The notes under the pieces were generated by a model, which saw nothing but the letters and a program-made list of their open reading frames with translations, was not told where the DNA came from and ran no database searches. Positions 19,393-25,497 of a DNA stretch of 43,299 bases are shown one piece after another. The stretch is from IMG/VR virus record IMGVR_UViG_2703718838_000011, one strand, 5' to 3'. The translations under genes and the position numbers were made by a program. Source of the stretch: a virus (Duplodnaviria; Heunggongvirae; Uroviricota; Caudoviricetes). Within the stretch, counting starts at the first letter, position 1; every line of letters begins with the position of its first letter.

Positions 19393-19903
19393 GTTCAATC
19401 AGCACCTCTGTCATCCTGTCCGCCGGTACATCCAGATCAGCAGCCATTAGCGGCGCCACCCTGGACGGCCAGTTAAGCCAGGCATCACGCTGTTGGCGAA
19501 AGGCGTTGAATAAAACCTCCTCGGCTGCTGTCAGCTCAATAAGCTGGCCGCTGTCTTTTTCATACTGCAGCTTTGCCTGCAGGGCCATGTAATTCTCGCG
19601 GATACGTCCCGCTTCCTCTCTCGAAAGATCTGCCCCTTCAGTGAGCATTATCTGGCGGACAGTTTTATTGATTTCATCACCGTCATCATCGTTATCGCTA
19701 ACGACGGGAGTTTTCTTTTTCTTCGCGTTCGAGGCGCGCGGGTCTTTGCCATCGCGGTTTTTCTTCAATGCCGCATCGCTGGCCTCTACGTCAATCAGGT
19801 CTCCGTCCATCACAATGAAGCGCCCGGCTTTAATCCACCGACTAATTGTTTTGCGATCCACACCTGAATGTTGTGCGTACTGACTCTGGTTCATCGTGGT
19901 CAT
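19334..19903 (-). CDS. terminase small subunit (Nu1-like)
   Basis: 189-aa ORF immediately upstream of terminase large subunit and downstream of the cos-like repeat array. Confidence 0.6.
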   Translation of the reverse strand: MTTMNQSQYAQHSGVDRKTISRWIKAGRFIVMDGDLIDVEASDAALKKNRDGKDPRASNAKKKKTPVVSDNDDDGDEINKTVRQIMLTEGADLSREEAGRIRENYMALQAKLQYEKDSGQLIELTAAEEVLFNAFRQQRDAWLNWPSRVAPLMAADLDVPADRMTEVLIEHVHKHISVLGEPEFNPAED

Positions 19904-20051
19904 GGGACATCACCTGGGACATTTTCTGGGGTGGGACATTCGCCTGGGACATTTTTGCCATGTCCCACCAGAATGTCCCACTGGAATAAACTGGAATAGC
20001 CAGAGCTGGCGAGGTGTCCGTAATGATCGCCAGAGGTGGGACATGGGACAC
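19903..20051. repeat. cos-region repeat array: six direct and two inverted copies of TGGGACA(T/C)
   Basis: Direct copies at 19903-19910, 19915-19922, 19932-19939, 19945-19952, 20037-20044, 20044-20051; inverted ATGTCCCA at 19960-19967 and 19973-19980; first copy abuts the Nu1 start codon. Confidence 0.5.
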
Positions 20052-20193
20052 AAATCTGAAAGTTGTAGCTAGGAAAACACCGCGGCGCGCAATGCCCGTA
20101 CCTTACAAAAGTCTCAGGAAGGACCCATTTTTTTATTGGCTTCGACCATTCGCTCCGACTATGATTATTCCTATTCAATACAAGGAGAATGTA

Positions 20194-20697
20194 ATGGGTA
20201 ACAATATAATCAAAATAACTTTCGTAGCCGCAGTGCTGGCATCACCAATTGCTCATGCCCAGTGGGTAACTAATACTGAAGATGACCTTTTCTCTGGTGG
20301 TAAGAAAGCAATGATGCTTGGCGAGGTTTCATCCGACAATGGCGCCATTGTGTTTGACTGCACTAAAGAAAAGCTATCGGCGGCATACGTTGAAATGGAT
20401 AAAAGCACCGAATCACTATCAGAGGTACCAATGGACCTGATAATGAAGGTCGACGGGAATACCGCAGTGAAGCTCGATGCTACCCTTTCAAGACGTAATG
20501 TTCAGAGCCTCCAGATTCAATCGGATGACGCGGACCAACTAAAAACAGTGCTTAAGCAGCTTCAGGGGGCGAAATCCAAAGTGTTAGTTGGTGTGCAAAC
20601 AAAGGATGGCGGAAACCAGCATTCCATGTCAGCCAATGTTTCTGGATCGACAACTGCAGTAAACAGCTTCATAAAAGCTTGCGAAATTAACTTATAA
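20194..20697 (+). CDS. secreted/periplasmic protein of unknown function (moron)
   Basis: ATG 20194 with SD AAGGAG at 20182-20187; N-terminal signal peptide MGNNIIKITFVAAVLASPIAHA; candidate promoter TTGGCT-N18-TATGAT at 20136-20165; opposite strand to flanking phage genes. Confidence 0.55.
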   Translation: MGNNIIKITFVAAVLASPIAHAQWVTNTEDDLFSGGKKAMMLGEVSSDNGAIVFDCTKEKLSAAYVEMDKSTESLSEVPMDLIMKVDGNTAVKLDATLSRRNVQSLQIQSDDADQLKTVLKQLQGAKSKVLVGVQTKDGGNQHSMSANVSGSTTAVNSFIKACEINL

Positions 20698-20707
20698 GTT
20701 ACTGCTT

Positions 20708-21346
20708 TTATTTTGCCGTCCTGATGGCTTCTGCTATCGCCTGATTTAAAGCAGACGGTAGCAGTGCGTTCGCCATGGTACGGGCCCTATCCATATACCC
20801 CAGCACTGGAGTCACAGGTAGCGCATCACCAAACCGGATCAAAAGCTTTGGAGAACGCTGTTTGCGTTTCGGTCTTCGCGTCCCGTTAGCGGAACGTTTG
20901 GCCCGTCGCTTCTTAGCTTTCATCGGCTTCTTACGCTGCCAGACAGCGTTAACGCCATCAACCTCACCTACGAATACATTTTCCTTTGCTTTAAGCTGTG
21001 AGAGCTTATTACGCGGCATGTTGCCGTATTTGTTTAGCTTGACGTTCTTGGGGTTCAATAGCGCTTGGCTATTGAGCTTATGCTCTCCACCTAACTCGAA
21101 TGGTTCCAGATAACCAGCCGCGGTATCGCGGACAAAAACCTTTGCAGTCAGGTTGTTCTTCCTTGCCGCCACCGAACCAACTGATTTAACGGTAAACGGT
21201 GTCGGGCTCTCCAGATGTCGTTCGAACGCTGTTTTCTGTGCCGTTTCTATTTGACGAACAACTTTTGTCATAGCTAGTGCTGTAGCATATGGCACCTGCT
21301 TTTGTACCTTCTTTAATTGCTGAGAAAGGTCTTTGAGTGTTGCCAT
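20708..21346 (-). CDS. hypothetical protein with Lys/Arg-rich segment
   Basis: ATG 21346 with SD GGAG; 212 aa; basic stretch KKPMKAKKRRAKRSANGTRRPKRKQRSPK. Confidence 0.45.
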   Translation of the reverse strand: MATLKDLSQQLKKVQKQVPYATALAMTKVVRQIETAQKTAFERHLESPTPFTVKSVGSVAARKNNLTAKVFVRDTAAGYLEPFELGGEHKLNSQALLNPKNVKLNKYGNMPRNKLSQLKAKENVFVGEVDGVNAVWQRKKPMKAKKRRAKRSANGTRRPKRKQRSPKLLIRFGDALPVTPVLGYMDRARTMANALLPSALNQAIAEAIRTAK

Positions 21347-21367
21347 AAACGCTCCAGTGTACTGACA

Positions 21368-21390
21368 TAAAAAAACCGCCCGGAGGCGGT
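21368..21390 (-). terminator. rho-independent terminator (minus strand)
   Basis: Stem ACCGCC/GGCGGT (21375-21380/21385-21390) followed on the minus strand by a 7-nt U-run. Confidence 0.6.
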
Positions 21391-21407
21391 GCATTATGCT
21401 TATCGTT

Positions 21408-21650
21408 CTATTCTTGCTCCGAATCCGGGTCATCAAAAACATTAATAGATAAGTAAACACACTCACCTATTTCCCATCCTTTCTTGCTAAGAATATCTTC
21501 AGGGGTAGTATCGGGAACATAGAAATAGTACTCATATACCATATCGCCTGAATGCCCTGTATTCTCCTCAAGGTCTTCAGGTGATAGAGGTATGGAATCC
21601 AACTCATCGTCAGTGAGTTCTAATTCAGTAGCAAGCGCTGATTGTGACAT
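21408..21650 (-). CDS. hypothetical acidic small protein
   Basis: ATG 21650 with SD AGGAGG; 80 aa; followed by terminator. Confidence 0.45.
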   Translation of the reverse strand: MSQSALATELELTDDELDSIPLSPEDLEENTGHSGDMVYEYYFYVPDTTPEDILSKKGWEIGECVYLSINVFDDPDSEQE

Positions 21651-21858
21651 ATGACCTCCTGTGTGAACTAACCTCAAGCTAACCCACGCAACAATTTAAT
21701 TCAACATCATGTTTTGTAAAGGATTTCTGACGAGTCCGTCAATTTGCATTATCGCAGGCACTCAGTGAATGCTTTCTGTAATGCAGTTAGTCGAGTAGCA
21801 ATACAGCATGCCTCTCAACCACGGGATTGGATATAACCCAGTGAATGTATTATCGATG

Positions 21859-21886
21859 AAAAAAGGCCGCCTAAGCGACCTTTTGC
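21859..21886 (-). terminator. rho-independent terminator (minus strand)
   Basis: Stem GGTCGC/GCGGCC with one G-U pair, followed on the minus strand by UUUUUU, just downstream of the 83-aa gene stop. Confidence 0.4.
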
Positions 21887-21888
21887 TT

Positions 21889-22140
21889 TTATCTTGACCT
21901 GATGATTTTTTCTATAGCTAAATGGACACGTTGATAATCATCAGTCCCAACGGGATATGAAGGGCTTCTTCTTCCGGCCACTTCGCCGTTGTAAACCATC
22001 TGAACTTTGATTACCTCAACATTTTCACCATCCCAGATTTCAGTTCCACGAGAAACTTTGTAATGCGTGTTACTTGGGTGTGGTTTAGATGCTGTCACTA
22101 ACTCTACAGAGTCTTCGATGGGGAAATATGTTTTTGCCAT
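21889..22140 (-). CDS. hypothetical protein
   Basis: 83-aa ORF with ATG at 22140; own terminator downstream. Confidence 0.45.
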   Translation of the reverse strand: MAKTYFPIEDSVELVTASKPHPSNTHYKVSRGTEIWDGENVEVIKVQMVYNGEVAGRRSPSYPVGTDDYQRVHLAIEKIIRSR

Positions 22141-22202
22141 AATGTTACCTTTGGTTTCCTATGGTATTCCTTTGGAATCCTATAGAAAGGATAACGGGTA
22201 CT

Positions 22203-22454
22203 TCATGGCTTGTCCACAAATTTTAGAGTGCTCGTCTTTACCTTTTTGGGATTACAGTTCACCTTCCATGCTTTGTTATGCACTAGGATGTCGCGCTTCG
22301 TCTGCTTATCCATAACGGCAATATCGTGGTCAGTAAGATAGATGGGCTTTACCCAATCACAGGCGGTATCAACGACTACCGGGGCGGGTCCAGTTGTTGC
22401 GCAGCTCACGATCAACATCGTCGCCAAGCATATGGTTAACACTCTGCTGTACAT
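22203..22454 (-). CDS. o-spanin (Rz1-like outer membrane lipoprotein)
   Basis: Signal peptide ending in lipobox IVSC; start lies inside the 3' part of the i-spanin gene in another frame. Confidence 0.5.
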   Translation of the reverse strand: MYSRVLTICLATMLIVSCATTGPAPVVVDTACDWVKPIYLTDHDIAVMDKQTKRDILVHNKAWKVNCNPKKVKTSTLKFVDKP

Positions 22455-23976: not shown

Positions 23977-24002
23977 ATAAAAAAGGCCACCCGAAGGTGG
24001 CC
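23977..24002 (-). terminator. rho-independent terminator (minus strand) between protease cassette and lysis genes
   Basis: Stem GGCCACC/GGTGGCC (23985-23991/23996-24002), loop CGAA, followed on the minus strand by UUUUUUAUU. Confidence 0.7.
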
Positions 24003-24026
24003 TTATGTGATTCGAGGATATATCGT

Positions 24027-24926
24027 TTAGCGAATATTCCACATCATCGTGCTGCCATTATGATTTTCAATAATTTTCGCAGCAGGACTCGTACCAAATG
24101 AATGCATGTAGCAATGATGTATAGTCAGCACAAGATCCTGCAGAGTTTGGTCGCTCTCCAGCTCCATAATGTTCAAACCAATGCTTTGCGCTTTATCCAG
24201 ATGAATATGTCTAGCATGCGCATAGGTTGTATGATGATTGTTTAGCTCATCACAAATTCGCTTAGCCTTATCTTGAGCGTTAGCATGACCTGCAAACATA
24301 CCAGTACACAGCCATTTTTGTACTATTTCATTAGCCCAAACAATAGCCTTTTCACATTCACCAATGAGAGTCGGGTTTAGCTTTTGAAGAGTAAATTGCC
24401 ACCATTGGATCGCTGCAGCATTTTCAGAAATCTCTTTCTTAGCTCGCTCATACTCTTCTATGATCGCATGAGATGATAAACCACCAAGCTGCGGATCAAT
24501 TGGCCCCAAATTTGACTGTTTGCCCAATACAATCTGTTCGGCACAGCAAGCCAACATGGTCCCACAACTCATTGAGATCATAGGAACAATTGCCCGGATA
24601 TTGGTCCCAAATTTTGAACGAAGATAATGACCAATAGATTCCAATGCTGCAATATCTCCCCCTGGGGTATGAAGCAAGATATCCAGCCCTAATGACGTGT
24701 CTAAGCCGTTAATGGCTGACATAAGACCATTTTTATCGTCATCTGACATTTGTATTAAATGCTGCAACCCAGGCCCCCCCTTCTGGAGGAAGCCTGAGTA
24801 ATATGAAATTACGTTTCGGCCTGTATGCTTCGACAACTCTCGTAAGTACTTGTGGCGAACCTCATCCGCTGGTGTACGTTGAGCAATAGTACCCATCTCG
24901 CCCAACACGTCTATCCAATTTGGCAT
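24027..24926 (-). CDS. SDH-family Clp-fold serine protease (ClpP/SppA-like)
   Basis: 299-aa ORF; segment LLHTPGGDIAALESIGHYLRSKFG...PMISMSCGTMLACCAEQ resembles the serine dehydrogenase proteinase family; family assignment from memory. Confidence 0.55.
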   Translation of the reverse strand: MPNWIDVLGEMGTIAQRTPADEVRHKYLRELSKHTGRNVISYYSGFLQKGGPGLQHLIQMSDDDKNGLMSAINGLDTSLGLDILLHTPGGDIAALESIGHYLRSKFGTNIRAIVPMISMSCGTMLACCAEQIVLGKQSNLGPIDPQLGGLSSHAIIEEYERAKKEISENAAAIQWWQFTLQKLNPTLIGECEKAIVWANEIVQKWLCTGMFAGHANAQDKAKRICDELNNHHTTYAHARHIHLDKAQSIGLNIMELESDQTLQDLVLTIHHCYMHSFGTSPAAKIIENHNGSTMMWNIR

Positions 24927-25139: not shown

Positions 25140-25227
25140 GATTTTGTCCCTCGTTATAGCTACATCTAGCTCAAAAACAAAACAACAAACACAAGATGTA
25201 GTGATTTACGGTCTTTAAATACACGAA

Positions 25228-25246
25228 AAGCCTCAAAACGAGGCTT
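25228..25246 (-). terminator. candidate tR'-like terminator downstream of late promoter
   Basis: Stem AAGCCTC/GAGGCTT with 5-nt loop; minus-strand downstream sequence UUCGUGUAUUU is only moderately U-rich. Confidence 0.35.
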
Positions 25247-25278
25247 TAAAAGAGTCTTTTTGATAAAGAACTAAACAG

Positions 25279-25308: not shown

Positions 25309-25412
25309 GTAAAAAAGGGATTAAAAGCTCATAAAAACGGCTTTTTTGGATTATTCATCATCTTTTTTGATGCACGTAACAATCCAAATATAAAAACAAA
25401 GTTTCGACAAAA

Positions 25413-25432
25413 AACCCGCTCGATGGCGGGTT
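25413..25432 (-). terminator. hairpin terminator immediately downstream of Q
   Basis: Stem AACCCGC/GCGGGTT with 6-nt loop, flanked by A-run on plus and U-run on minus transcript. Confidence 0.4.
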
Positions 25433-25497
25433 CTTAATTCTTTGTCGACCTACGAAGCTATGGCGACGATATCAGATTTACATGAAATATATGCGTT

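Follow-up and report, generated by a model that had tools for sequence, protein, structure and literature searches.

What kinds of genes lie between the spanin genes and the cos site of a lambdoid prophage, and are they transcribed on their own or as part of the late operon? The window analyzed here, a stretch of 43,299 nucleotides, comes from a lambdoid E. coli prophage that combines a lambda-type head with a Mu/SfV-type contractile tail. An earlier note on this DNA placed three leftward accessory genes in the gap, and described them as independent transcription units preceded, in one case, by direct repeats that might bind a regulator. The three reading frames lie where that note put them, in agreement with the RefSeq CDSs; all are on the minus strand, and each begins with an ATG preceded by a Shine-Dalgarno sequence. 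The DNA of the region is 100% identical in six E. coli genomes, in which RefSeq lists the same three CDSs, all as hypothetical proteins, and a megablast search of the phage collection with the region returned no match. The spanin-to-cos gap also contains a plus-strand ORF of 167 aa with a signal peptide (20194-20697), which the note had omitted. In the order of leftward transcription, the features of the region are the following.

22188-22216, minus strand: promoter-like site TGGACA-17-TATCCT, 9/12 matches in a consensus scan
22148-22185, minus strand: operator-like array of four 7-nt C[CT]A[AT]AGG motifs (CTATAGG, CCAAAGG, CCATAGG, CCAAAGG)
21889-22140, minus strand: 83-aa cargo gene, whose product is the proposed binder of the upstream motif array
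21855-21884, minus strand: intrinsic terminator after the 83-aa gene, AAAAGGUCGC-UUAG-GCGGCCUUUU then UU
21747-21783, minus strand: conserved two-part hairpin, CAUUA / CA / variable 9-10-bp stem / GA / UAAUG
21693-21720, minus strand: promoter-like site before the 80-aa gene, TTTACA-16-TAAATT, 9/12 matches in a consensus scan
21408-21650, minus strand: highly acidic 80-aa cargo gene (phrog_31861), from its ORF, composition and PHROG assignment
21368-21390, minus strand: intrinsic terminator after the 80-aa gene, ACCGCC-UCCG-GGCGGU then U7
20708-21346, minus strand: gene of a predicted 212-aa tail completion protein (gpZ / HK97 gp10 / SPP1 gp16.1 / 80alpha gp51 family), from profile, fold and PHROG assignment

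We propose that the region is a cargo slot that closes the lysis cassette, with a core structural gene coming next. In this reading, to which as a whole we assign a probability of about 0.7, the slot holds two morons, one of them (the 83-aa gene) autoregulated; Q-dependent read-through carries transcription across both, and the 212-aa product is a tail completion protein.

The 80-aa and 83-aa genes are true variable cargo, or morons. Among 80 related viral loci the former is present in 5 and the latter in 4, and the sister E. coli prophages (L018-L020) carry other genes in their place; the neighboring slot in these sisters holds cargo typical of prophages, for example cspG, gnsAB and ynfU. Both small genes are inserted between genes that are adjacent in relatives, each is closed by its own terminator, and their GC contents (0.407 and 0.413) lie below those of the 212-aa gene (0.490) and of the window (0.509). 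The description of three accessory genes is thus sustained for these two; it fails for the 212-aa gene, a core tail gene as judged by the evidence given below.

At both terminator sites a GC-rich hairpin is followed immediately by a U-run on the transcribed strand, the signature of intrinsic (Rho-independent) termination. The site after the 80-aa gene folds at -16.5 kcal/mol (z -4.2) and that after the 83-aa gene at -14.5 kcal/mol (z -3.5), with none of 200 shuffles equally stable in the latter case; a simple terminator scan overlooked this second site because A/U pairs lengthen its stem. Both terminators had been predicted, the second at 21859-21886. The terminator after the 80-aa gene is found in all three contexts in which the 80-aa cassette occurs, with a different sequence in Ewingella, and in the window 22 nt separate it from the start codon of the 212-aa gene. 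Because it lies so close behind a terminator and has no promoter-like site of its own, the 212-aa gene would need read-through from upstream. The two small genes each have a promoter-like site, although matches of 9/12 to the consensus are no commoner in this region than in shuffled sequence. The site before the 83-aa gene falls within the 3'-terminal part of Rz1 and immediately precedes the motif array, and a promoter overlapping or preceding the array was judged by eye to be present in four homologue loci (L026, L354, L008 and L012). At the place that matches the site before the 80-aa gene, loci L014 and L016 have other promoter-like hexamers, the sequence itself not being conserved.

The setting of these genes is a late operon with several further terminators, and a Q gene is present. 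An Rfam match to isrJ lies directly downstream of Q, at a position where one would expect a short leader transcript from pR'. In the lytic cycle, Q-antiterminated RNA polymerase would start at pR' (~25.5 kb), move leftward through the lysis genes, pass both terminators into the 212-aa gene, cross cos and go on to transcribe terS, terL, and the genes of head and tail. As long as the prophage is repressed, the same terminators would shield the cargo units from each other and from the structural genes. The notion of independent transcription units is therefore overstated: a terminator does follow each small gene, but these genes lie inside a multi-terminator late operon that is probably antiterminated by Q.

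An unlikely but serious alternative is that the small genes serve lysogenic conversion: as morons active in the repressed prophage, they would benefit the host, for example by phage exclusion or altered physiology. The anatomy of the two units (low GC, own promoter-like site, own terminator) is what such genes would have, and the cspG, gnsAB and ynfU genes of the sister prophages occupy the neighboring slot. Additionally, in three loci (L023-L025) a homologue of the 83-aa gene lies on the opposite strand inside a head gene cluster, and must for that reason be transcribed on its own. Expression from the repressed prophage would also be compatible with autoregulation of the 83-aa gene. Against it, neither protein matches a PADLOC defense model, and both lack the signal peptide or membrane segment that is common in exclusion proteins.

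The 80-aa protein is as acidic as had been described, with a pI of 4.05 and 22 D/E residues (27%) against 2 K/R, and the very basic segment ascribed to the 212-aa protein is likewise present. Searches with the 80-aa protein gave no Pfam, NCBIfam or PADLOC match, phrog_31861 carries no function annotation, tblastn against phages returned no match, and comparison of the protein or its family profile with PDB sequences gave spurious low-complexity hits and no meaningful match. Its gene forms a cassette that lies between the Rz and terminase genes in three unrelated phage types, and the core domain of the protein also occurs on plasmids. These observations suggest that the 80-aa gene is a second moron, consisting of promoter-like site, ORF and terminator, that would move as a cassette between unrelated phages.

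Its composition raises the further reading that all three genes are accessory and that the small ones, above all the acidic 80-aa gene, encode DNA mimics or anti-defense proteins that counteract restriction or another form of host immunity. The strong net negative charge of the 80-aa protein, reminiscent of Ocr, ArdA and Ugi, is a property that is necessary for a DNA mimic and far from sufficient, and composition alone cannot identify one. As variable cargo, both small genes occur on phages, on ICE-like elements and on plasmids; the core domain of the 80-aa protein is the only cargo gene of a 5-kb mobilizable plasmid; and the 83-aa family is spread widely, as are also proteins that target universal components. 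We nevertheless regard this reading as quite unlikely. Neither small protein matches any solved protein by sequence in the PDB, which is assumed to include the known anti-defense proteins, and the model of the 83-aa protein has no fold match. Expression from the late operon would come too late for anti-restriction, unless the genes' own promoters fire on entry. Finally, the 212-aa gene appears to be a structural core gene, and not an accessory one.

Several lines of evidence identify the 212-aa gene product. In PHROG it matches phrog_1924, 'minor tail protein', with an E of 2.6e-60, and the source names of its 913 homologue clusters include 'minor tail protein Z' and 'HK97 gp10 family'. The protein from the window itself had no match in Pfam, even with the E cutoff relaxed to 10, or in NCBIfam or PADLOC, and searches of PDB sequences with this single protein gave spurious low-complexity matches only. 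Its relatives bridge the distance: PF06763 (Minor_tail_Z) is matched by 7/107 diverse relatives (best E 2.4e-7), and the R4C homologue reaches an E of 0.013 in the Pfam comparison. In hhalign comparisons, a deep alignment of the family (A5) aligned collinearly over its full length with a single lambda gpZ sequence (E 6e-4, probability 28%); with a shallow alignment (A3) the comparison was not significant, and the deep alignment matched a true Pfam gpZ from Ewingella over the N-terminus alone.

The predicted structure points in the same direction. An AlphaFold2 model (pLDDT 93.7) begins with an N-terminal helix of 41 residues (4-44) and ends with a C-terminal helix of 28 residues (184-211); a beta domain and a basic loop that is flexible lie between them. 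A long bent N-terminal helix, a loop/beta insertion and a C-terminal helix make up the published architecture of tail completion proteins (bioRxiv 10.1101/2024.12.10.627806), and the model fits it. In Foldseek searches it retrieved viral predicted-structure (BFVD) models at an E of 3e-10, with entries named 'HK97 gp10 family', 'Neck Ne1' and 'tail component' at probabilities of 0.87-0.99. The PDB match was weak and non-significant: 9mu2_P, a 109-residue chain of the SaPI1 neck structure, superposed with a TM of 0.62 (normalized to the target) and an rmsd of 2.1 A.

The gene is also conserved where the cargo is not. It is followed by terS in 75/80 related viral loci, E. coli variants with different cargo retain it, and homologues of 28-75% identity occupy the same position in phiNP, BZS1, RcCronus, R4C and phiAP1. 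Here and in all relatives examined it sits between the lysis cassette and cos/terS, outside the usual tail completion slot, which extends from the head-closure to the tail-terminator or major tail genes. No other gene resembling a tail completion gene was found in the tail cluster of the prophage, where the position behind the FII-like gene is occupied by an unrelated protein of 181 aa. Its fold, the profile bridge and the PHROG assignment place the 212-aa protein in the tail completion family; it is probably the tail completion protein of this phage, and would as such be present in the virion neck and serve in head-tail joining or DNA ejection. For SPP1 gp16.1 and lambda gpZ, loss of the protein is reported to leave particles that look normal but are 100- to 500-fold less infective. 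The earlier note had itself named homology to head or tail accessory proteins as grounds for abandoning its accessory reading; on that ground the gene is reclassified as a core gene of the gpZ/HK97-gp10 type. In this lineage, the tail completion gene would have been placed beside cos/terS and not inside the tail cluster.

A role in DNA packaging or in the handling of cos ends together with terminase, in a protein with a gpZ-like fold that is not a tail component, seems to us improbable. The gene always lies immediately before cos/terS and a gpA-type terL, and does so alike in phages with contractile tails (this prophage and BZS1) and with non-contractile tails (RcCronus and R4C). Moreover, the protein is very basic (pI 10.9), with an inserted loop that holds 16 K/R in residues 137-166, and lambda gpZ has been proposed to bind one DNA end (a proposal cited in bioRxiv 10.1101/2024.12.10.627806). 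However, the lysine/arginine-rich loop of 30 residues is absent from the homologues in alphaproteobacterial phages. A gene before cos still lies on the late transcript, so that its position alone is no sign of packaging; similarity in fold and profile extends over the whole length of tail completion proteins; and the tail cluster offers no other candidate for that function.

The 83-aa gene, which we read as the autoregulated moron of the slot, belongs to a family whose members are 50-87% identical across Proteobacteria and Firmicutes and are found on phages, ICE-like elements and other mobile elements. One homologue lies directly upstream of a methyltransferase gene with a convergent SmaI-type nuclease gene. 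The protein gave no Pfam, PHROG, NCBIfam or PADLOC match, a cluster look-up returned the name 'hypothetical protein' only, and comparison of the protein and its family profile with PDB sequences yielded spurious low-complexity matches only. Its AlphaFold2 model (pLDDT 92.4) has four beta strands and a C-terminal helix, and its GRRSPSYP loop is invariant. With a pI of 6.8 the protein is not basic, and the model contains neither a ribbon-helix-helix nor a helix-turn-helix, that is, no recognized DNA-binding fold. A Foldseek search of the PDB with this model gave no significant match, the best being Crl (TM 0.52, probability 0.54).

Upstream of this gene, two 17-bp direct repeats (22148-22164 and 22169-22185) match at 14/17 positions with a period of 21 nt. 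They had been noticed before and placed one nucleotide too far to the left; on closer resolution they are four 7-bp motifs (CYAWAGG) spaced by 10, 11 and 10 nt, one helical turn apart, the last of which is the Shine-Dalgarno sequence of the gene. The expected number of repeats of this quality and proximity is 0.7 in the 43-kb window as a whole and about 0.001 per 62-nt spacer, and the cluster is the only one of its kind in the window. Rfam has no family for the array.

The suggestion that the repeats are regulator sites gains support from their conservation, the lack of which was to have counted against it. Similar arrays lie upstream of distant homologues in 24/26 distinct contexts, in phages and other mobile elements of several phyla, and are missing upstream of two, L353 and L356 (jumbo phage Goe21). 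The strict 7-mer occurs 1.97 times per 100 nt upstream of the homologues and 0.066 times over the same whole loci, and the relaxed motif, counted in the 26 contexts, 3.1 versus 0.22 times; by the relaxed motif, the upstream window is the richest of all windows of its own locus in 20/26. The spacings cluster at 10-11 nt and multiples thereof, and the motifs, which overlap promoter hexamers, are found in either orientation. No conserved neighbor gene that travels with the array was found in the homologue loci. Short repeats that lie at a gene's own promoter and travel with that gene are the pattern of an autoregulated repressor. Since similar arrays accompany nearly all contexts of the family, the 83-aa protein is most likely a self-regulating, sequence-specific DNA-binding protein that represses its own synthesis. 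Its gene would be a self-contained moron made up of promoter, four phased 7-bp operator motifs, ORF and terminator, the product of which binds the array and shuts down its own synthesis.

A role of the array in RNA, such as that of a GGA/AGG translational operator of the CsrA type, is very improbable, and so is its origin as a local duplication of the ribosome-binding site that has no function: the array does lie directly before the ATG in the window and in Buttiauxella, with a Shine-Dalgarno sequence as its last motif, three GGA motifs occur in the minus-strand RNA and the 21-nt period could stem from tandem duplication, but the motifs run in both orientations in L023, L349, L351, L354 and L386, the arrays of L023, L026, L349 and L351 lie 32-120 nt before the ATG and overlap or precede promoter hexamers, the spacer RNA is predicted to fold no better than shuffled sequence does (z -1.1), and conservation in nearly all contexts across phyla excludes a chance duplication. 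CsrA-type regulation was dropped because the motifs face both ways and lie upstream of promoters.

Between the two cargo genes lies a further conserved element, a hairpin that belongs to a covarying family (covariation counted by script), of which the copy in the window is slightly decayed. Members lie between cistrons and on the sense strand only; in each, a small internal loop separates a lower from an upper stem, and the paired parts add up to about 17 bp. All members come from the cargo slot of prophages of Enterobacterales; scans of public collections with 14- and 17-base patterns gave mostly chance matches, which were filtered by pairing. No Rfam family matches the hairpin. We rejected the element as a sigma-70 promoter because its spacer measures 21-22 nt, and as a terminator because it has no U-run, although variants with a U-run exist in relatives. 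Possibly the CAUUACA...GAUAAUG hairpin is a cis-acting RNA element of a new kind, with which the late operons of Enterobacterales prophages mark the boundaries of their cargo.

A bolder proposal, which we put forward tentatively, is that the 83-aa protein founds an undescribed family of small DNA-binding proteins, sequence-specific and of a fold absent from solved structures, in which every gene is under the control of its own helically phased CYAWAGG array; the hairpin would, independently of this, be a new cis-acting RNA. If so, phages, ICEs and plasmids have carried the family through Proteobacteria and Firmicutes, and its members act on a conserved target in the establishment of these elements, as in timing control or counter-defense.

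The analysis bears on annotation in several ways. The basic gene beside cos, listed as hypothetical, can be corrected to a predicted tail completion gene. Its family is large (1116 clusters at 50% identity) and lies beside the terminase genes, not in the tail cluster, wherever examined; such cos-adjacent genes matter for the automatic classification of prophages by neck and tail. The 83-aa protein and its conserved operator array provide a testable hypothesis for a widespread, uncharacterized family of small proteins, and the covarying hairpin is new relative to Rfam. Furthermore, as a hotspot of cargo exchange, the slot is a reasonable place to seek candidates for new phage-host interaction genes.

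Each component of the region resembles a known system and departs from it. The moron concept is reportedly due to Hendrix and colleagues. Like the morons of lambdoid phages (lambda bor and lom; HK97), the small genes are extras between late genes that are adjacent in relatives; their GC is lower, and each has a terminator and a promoter-like site to itself. Unlike those of the bor/lom type, their products are small cytoplasmic proteins and not envelope proteins. T7 Ocr, ArdA and Ugi are DNA-mimic anti-restriction proteins. The 80-aa protein is likewise small, extremely acidic and carried on mobile elements, but resembles no solved protein or known family in sequence, and its gene lies in a late operon.

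The omega protein of pSM19035 is a small repressor that binds 7-bp heptads in both orientations, and ParR with its iterons and the controller (C) proteins of restriction-modification systems are small repressors that bind arrays of short repeats. The 83-aa protein is similarly small, its gene is preceded by short repeats that can lie in either orientation and overlap the putative promoter, and the homologue before the methyltransferase and SmaI-type nuclease genes occupies the position of a C protein. It differs in its predicted beta meander with one helix, and its array in a spacing of 10-11 bp where those of the small repressors are contiguous; binding is in this case a prediction. Known intercistronic hairpins include the RNase III sites of T7 and REP-type stabilizers. 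The hairpin described here resembles them in its place between cistrons and its two stems with an internal loop, and differs in that sequence conservation covers the lower stem and the internal loop but not the variable upper stem, and in its restriction to the cargo slot of Enterobacterales prophages.

Finally, the 212-aa protein shares the predicted helix-beta-helix architecture of gpZ (PF06763), HK97 gp10 (PF04883), SPP1 gp16.1 and 80alpha gp51; with gpZ it shares an apical beta domain and a similar size (about 190-230 aa for the gpZ type), and with the known tail completion proteins in general a profile-level sequence link, a tail annotation in PHROG and, presumably, late transcription. 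It departs from them in falling below every Pfam threshold and in its predicted service here in a contractile tail, from its distant homologues in its K/R-rich loop of 30 residues, and from the known tail completion genes in its location at the end of the lysis region, just upstream of cos/terS.

Six complete E. coli chromosomes match the 2.3 kb around the three small leftward genes at 100% identity; the window is an E. coli prophage. In the RefSeq annotation of one matching chromosome, lambdoid early genes are followed by the Q antiterminator, holins, a GH19 endolysin and Rz/Rz1, then by genes for proteins of 83, 80 and 212 aa and a plus-strand ORF, and finally by terS, a gpA-type terL, gpW, portal, protease, decoration, capsid and a Mu/SfV-type contractile tail. 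The late genes all lie on the minus strand. The earlier note had read the 83-, 80- and 212-aa genes as three accessory genes, the acidic product being a possible DNA mimic or anti-defence protein. The ORFs lie exactly where it had placed them, each with an ATG start and a Shine-Dalgarno sequence, and both terminators that it reported are real on the minus strand. The note's interpretation holds in part: rather than three anti-defence genes, the region holds two morons in a cargo slot and, behind them, a core structural gene away from its usual place. The features are as follows:

25410-25482, minus: isrJ, Rfam match above the gathering threshold, just downstream of Q
25227-25247: terminator-like site in the late operon
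24027-24926, minus: gene for an SDH-type ClpP-fold serine protease, flanked by Q/pR' and the holins
23983-24004, minus: strong terminator of the protease gene, AAGGCCACC-UUCG-GGUGGCCUU plus a U-run
21889-22140, minus: 83-aa gene
21855-21884, minus: terminator after the 83-aa gene
21747-21783, minus: hairpin CAUUACAG...CGAUAAUG, between the terminator of the 83-aa gene and the 80-aa gene
21408-21650, minus: 80-aa gene
21368-21390, minus: terminator after the 80-aa gene
20708-21346, minus: 212-aa gene
20194-20697, plus: 167-aa ORF with a signal peptide (...PIAHA/QW), phrog_19473, of unknown function
20136-20165: promoter-like site near the 167-aa ORF
6176-6299, minus: STnc490 (Hfq-binding sRNA), Rfam match above the gathering threshold, between tape-measure and DNA-circularisation genes

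The isrJ match probably represents the short pR' leader transcript expected at such a place. Gene order, the isrJ site and the additional terminator-like sites together place the three genes within a Q-dependent late operon that contains several terminators. The serine protease gene with its own terminator looks like another moron inside this operon. Just upstream of terS, dense GGGACAT-type direct and inverted repeats (window 19898-20050) probably make up the sites in cos to which the small terminase binds.

The 212-aa gene is the one member of the trio that does not stand as an accessory gene; its sequence relatives and predicted fold point to a tail completion protein, not cargo. The protein matches phrog_1924, 'minor tail protein' (E 2.6e-60), and its homologues (913 clusters) are in some cases called 'minor tail protein Z' or 'HK97 gp10 family'; the family comprises 1116 representative clusters at 50% identity. 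The protein itself reached no Pfam model, and 7 of 107 diverse relatives matched PF06763 Minor_tail_Z (best E 2.4e-7). Lambda gpZ aligns end to end with the family profile at E 6e-4, but with a probability of only 28%. The confident AlphaFold2 model (pLDDT 93.7) has helices at 4-44 and 184-211, with a beta domain and then a low-confidence basic loop between them. Kizziah et al. (bioRxiv 10.1101/2024.12.10.627806) describe this architecture for 80alpha gp51 as well as for gpZ, gp10 and gp16.1 models, gpZ having an additional apical beta domain. Against viral models, Foldseek returned unnamed entries at E 3e-10 and 'HK97 gp10 family', 'Neck Ne1' and 'tail component' entries with probabilities of 0.87-0.99; the sole topical match in the PDB was the weak 9mu2_P, a 109-residue SaPI1 neck chain. 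The whole protein has a pI of 10.9; the very basic segment is present as described (16 K/R within residues 137-166) and is an insertion, absent from Rhodobacter and Dinoroseobacter phage homologues.

This gene holds the same unusual position throughout. In Citrobacter phiNP, Serratia BZS1 and Acetobacter phiAP1 it immediately precedes terS and a gpA-type terL, the linear genomes of the siphoviruses RcCronus and R4C end with a gene of this type, and terS comes next in 75 of 80 related viral loci (L029-L108). Every E. coli variant examined keeps it, regardless of cargo. The tail cluster contains an FII-like head-closure gene; a search of the cluster for a tail completion gene recognised none, the 181-aa protein in that slot being unrelated. 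The gene starts 22 nt behind a terminator and no promoter-like site was found preceding it, so its expression should depend on Q read-through, to judge from what is established for lambda.

The 80-aa and 83-aa genes, by comparison, are variable cargo, in line with the accessory status that the earlier note had given them. They occur in 5/80 and 4/80 of the related loci, respectively, and have a GC content of 0.41 versus 0.51 for the window. Among sister E. coli prophages, L018 carries a 114-aa gene in place of the 83-aa gene, both small genes are replaced by a 99-aa gene in L019 and by DUF1883, ynfU, gnsAB, ymcF and cspG in L020, and L021 is missing the 167-aa ORF. Its absence there and its presence in 34 of the 80 loci make this ORF a third moron, in a position similar to that of lambda bor. 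Among L029-L108, a recurrent terminator, (A/G)CCGCCU(C/A/U)CGGGCGGU plus a U-run, lies 20-60 nt upstream of the putative tail completion gene and closes many different cargo genes; its sequence may serve as a common right-hand boundary for cargo exchange.

The 80-aa protein is as acidic as had been noted (pI 4.05; 22 D/E versus 2 K/R). Its cassette, in which the ORF is preceded by a hairpin and followed by a terminator, also occupies the Rz-to-terminase position in a podovirus-like metagenomic phage and in an Ewingella prophage of lambda/Gifsy-like type. All three contexts retain the terminator, which differs in sequence in Ewingella. The family is small (8 clusters, Enterobacterales). Its core (residues 26-65) also turns up on conjugative plasmids of Vibrio and Photobacterium, within proteins of 127-129 aa, and in the sole cargo gene of a 5-kb mobilisable Enterobacter plasmid.

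The hairpin, which the earlier note did not mention, has a two-part pattern (CAUUA, CA, variable stem, GA, UAAUG) that is also present at L014 and L016. In relatives a lower stem of 5-7 bp and an upper stem of 9-10 bp are separated by a 2x2 internal loop (CA/GA), with fold energies of -20 to -26 kcal/mol (z about -5). The copy in the window, with two mismatches, reaches -13.9 to -14.6 kcal/mol according to how much flanking sequence is folded with it. Across 29 distinct unfiltered copies, 96.9% of upper-stem positions are paired, against 69% with shuffled partners and 35-49% in a slid register, and compensatory double changes occur at 9/9 upper-stem pairs. Fifty-one of the 80 loci hold 53 copies, every one on the sense strand between the lysis genes and the putative tail completion gene, 23 of them 12-21 nt ahead of its ATG. 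Scanning one genome per species gave a bimodal pairing score, and well-paired copies with a listed source record were all from Enterobacterales save two 8/9 matches, one in Acinetobacter and one in a Chitinophagales MAG, whose folds are weak and which look fortuitous. A search of Rfam yielded no matching family. Some relatives have a terminator-like U-run variant at the site. The hairpin may be an RNase III site, an mRNA stabiliser or a boundary at which cargo is exchanged by recombination.

The best lead in the region is the repeat array upstream of the 83-aa gene. The two 17-bp direct repeats exist (14/17 match, 21-nt period), 1 nt further right than had been reported; 0.7 pairs of this quality are expected by chance in the whole window, and the observed pair is far beyond chance. 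The pair is made up of four 7-nt motifs, C[CT]A[AT]AGG, spaced 10/11/10 nt, which begin 3 nt past a promoter-like -10 hexamer and form the only motif cluster within the window. The suggestion that they are regulator sites gains support from similar arrays conserved before distant homologues: upstream of these genes the strict motif reaches a density of 1.97 per 100 nt, versus 0.066 across whole loci. The relaxed motif averages 3.1 copies per 100 nt upstream versus 0.22 per background window in 26 distinct contexts, in 20 of which the upstream window exceeds all others of its locus. Spacings cluster at 10-11 nt and multiples, and at several loci motifs in both orientations overlap the -35 hexamer, spacer or -10 hexamer.

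The 83-aa family (38 clusters, 50-87% identity; invariant core KVQMVY...GRRSPSYP.GTDD) occurs in phages and prophages of Enterobacterales, Bacillus and Ruminococcus-type hosts, within a head gene cluster on the opposite strand, in ICE-like elements with TraG, on Bacillaceae and Shinella plasmids, adjoining a methyltransferase with a SmaI-type nuclease and, twice, adjoining gyrB. No neighbour gene is common to the contexts compared; across phyla the 83-aa gene is the one thing that accompanies the array. The simplest candidate for the binder is therefore the protein that the gene itself encodes, which would make the 83-aa protein an autoregulated DNA-binding protein. It is not basic (pI 6.8), and its confident AlphaFold2 model (pLDDT 92.4; four strands and a C-terminal helix) gave no significant match to solved structures. 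The conserved RRSPSY loop contains a turn of the SPXX type, a kind of motif known for contacts with A/T-rich minor grooves; this is only a lead.

At two of these loci the homologue adjoins gyrB: it is convergent with a bacterial gyrB in L349/L350 (3001-3276), and in the jumbo Bacillus phage Goe21 (L356, 1501-1983) it makes up the N-terminal half of a protein of 160 aa whose gene immediately precedes gyrB. This double adjacency may be a coincidence or a hint of a topoisomerase link. At L354 (2397-2654), an 85-aa homologue, preceded by CTATAG-type repeats, is followed after 20 nt by an N6/N4 methyltransferase, to which a SmaI-family nuclease is convergent; the homologue thus occupies the position of a controller (C) protein.
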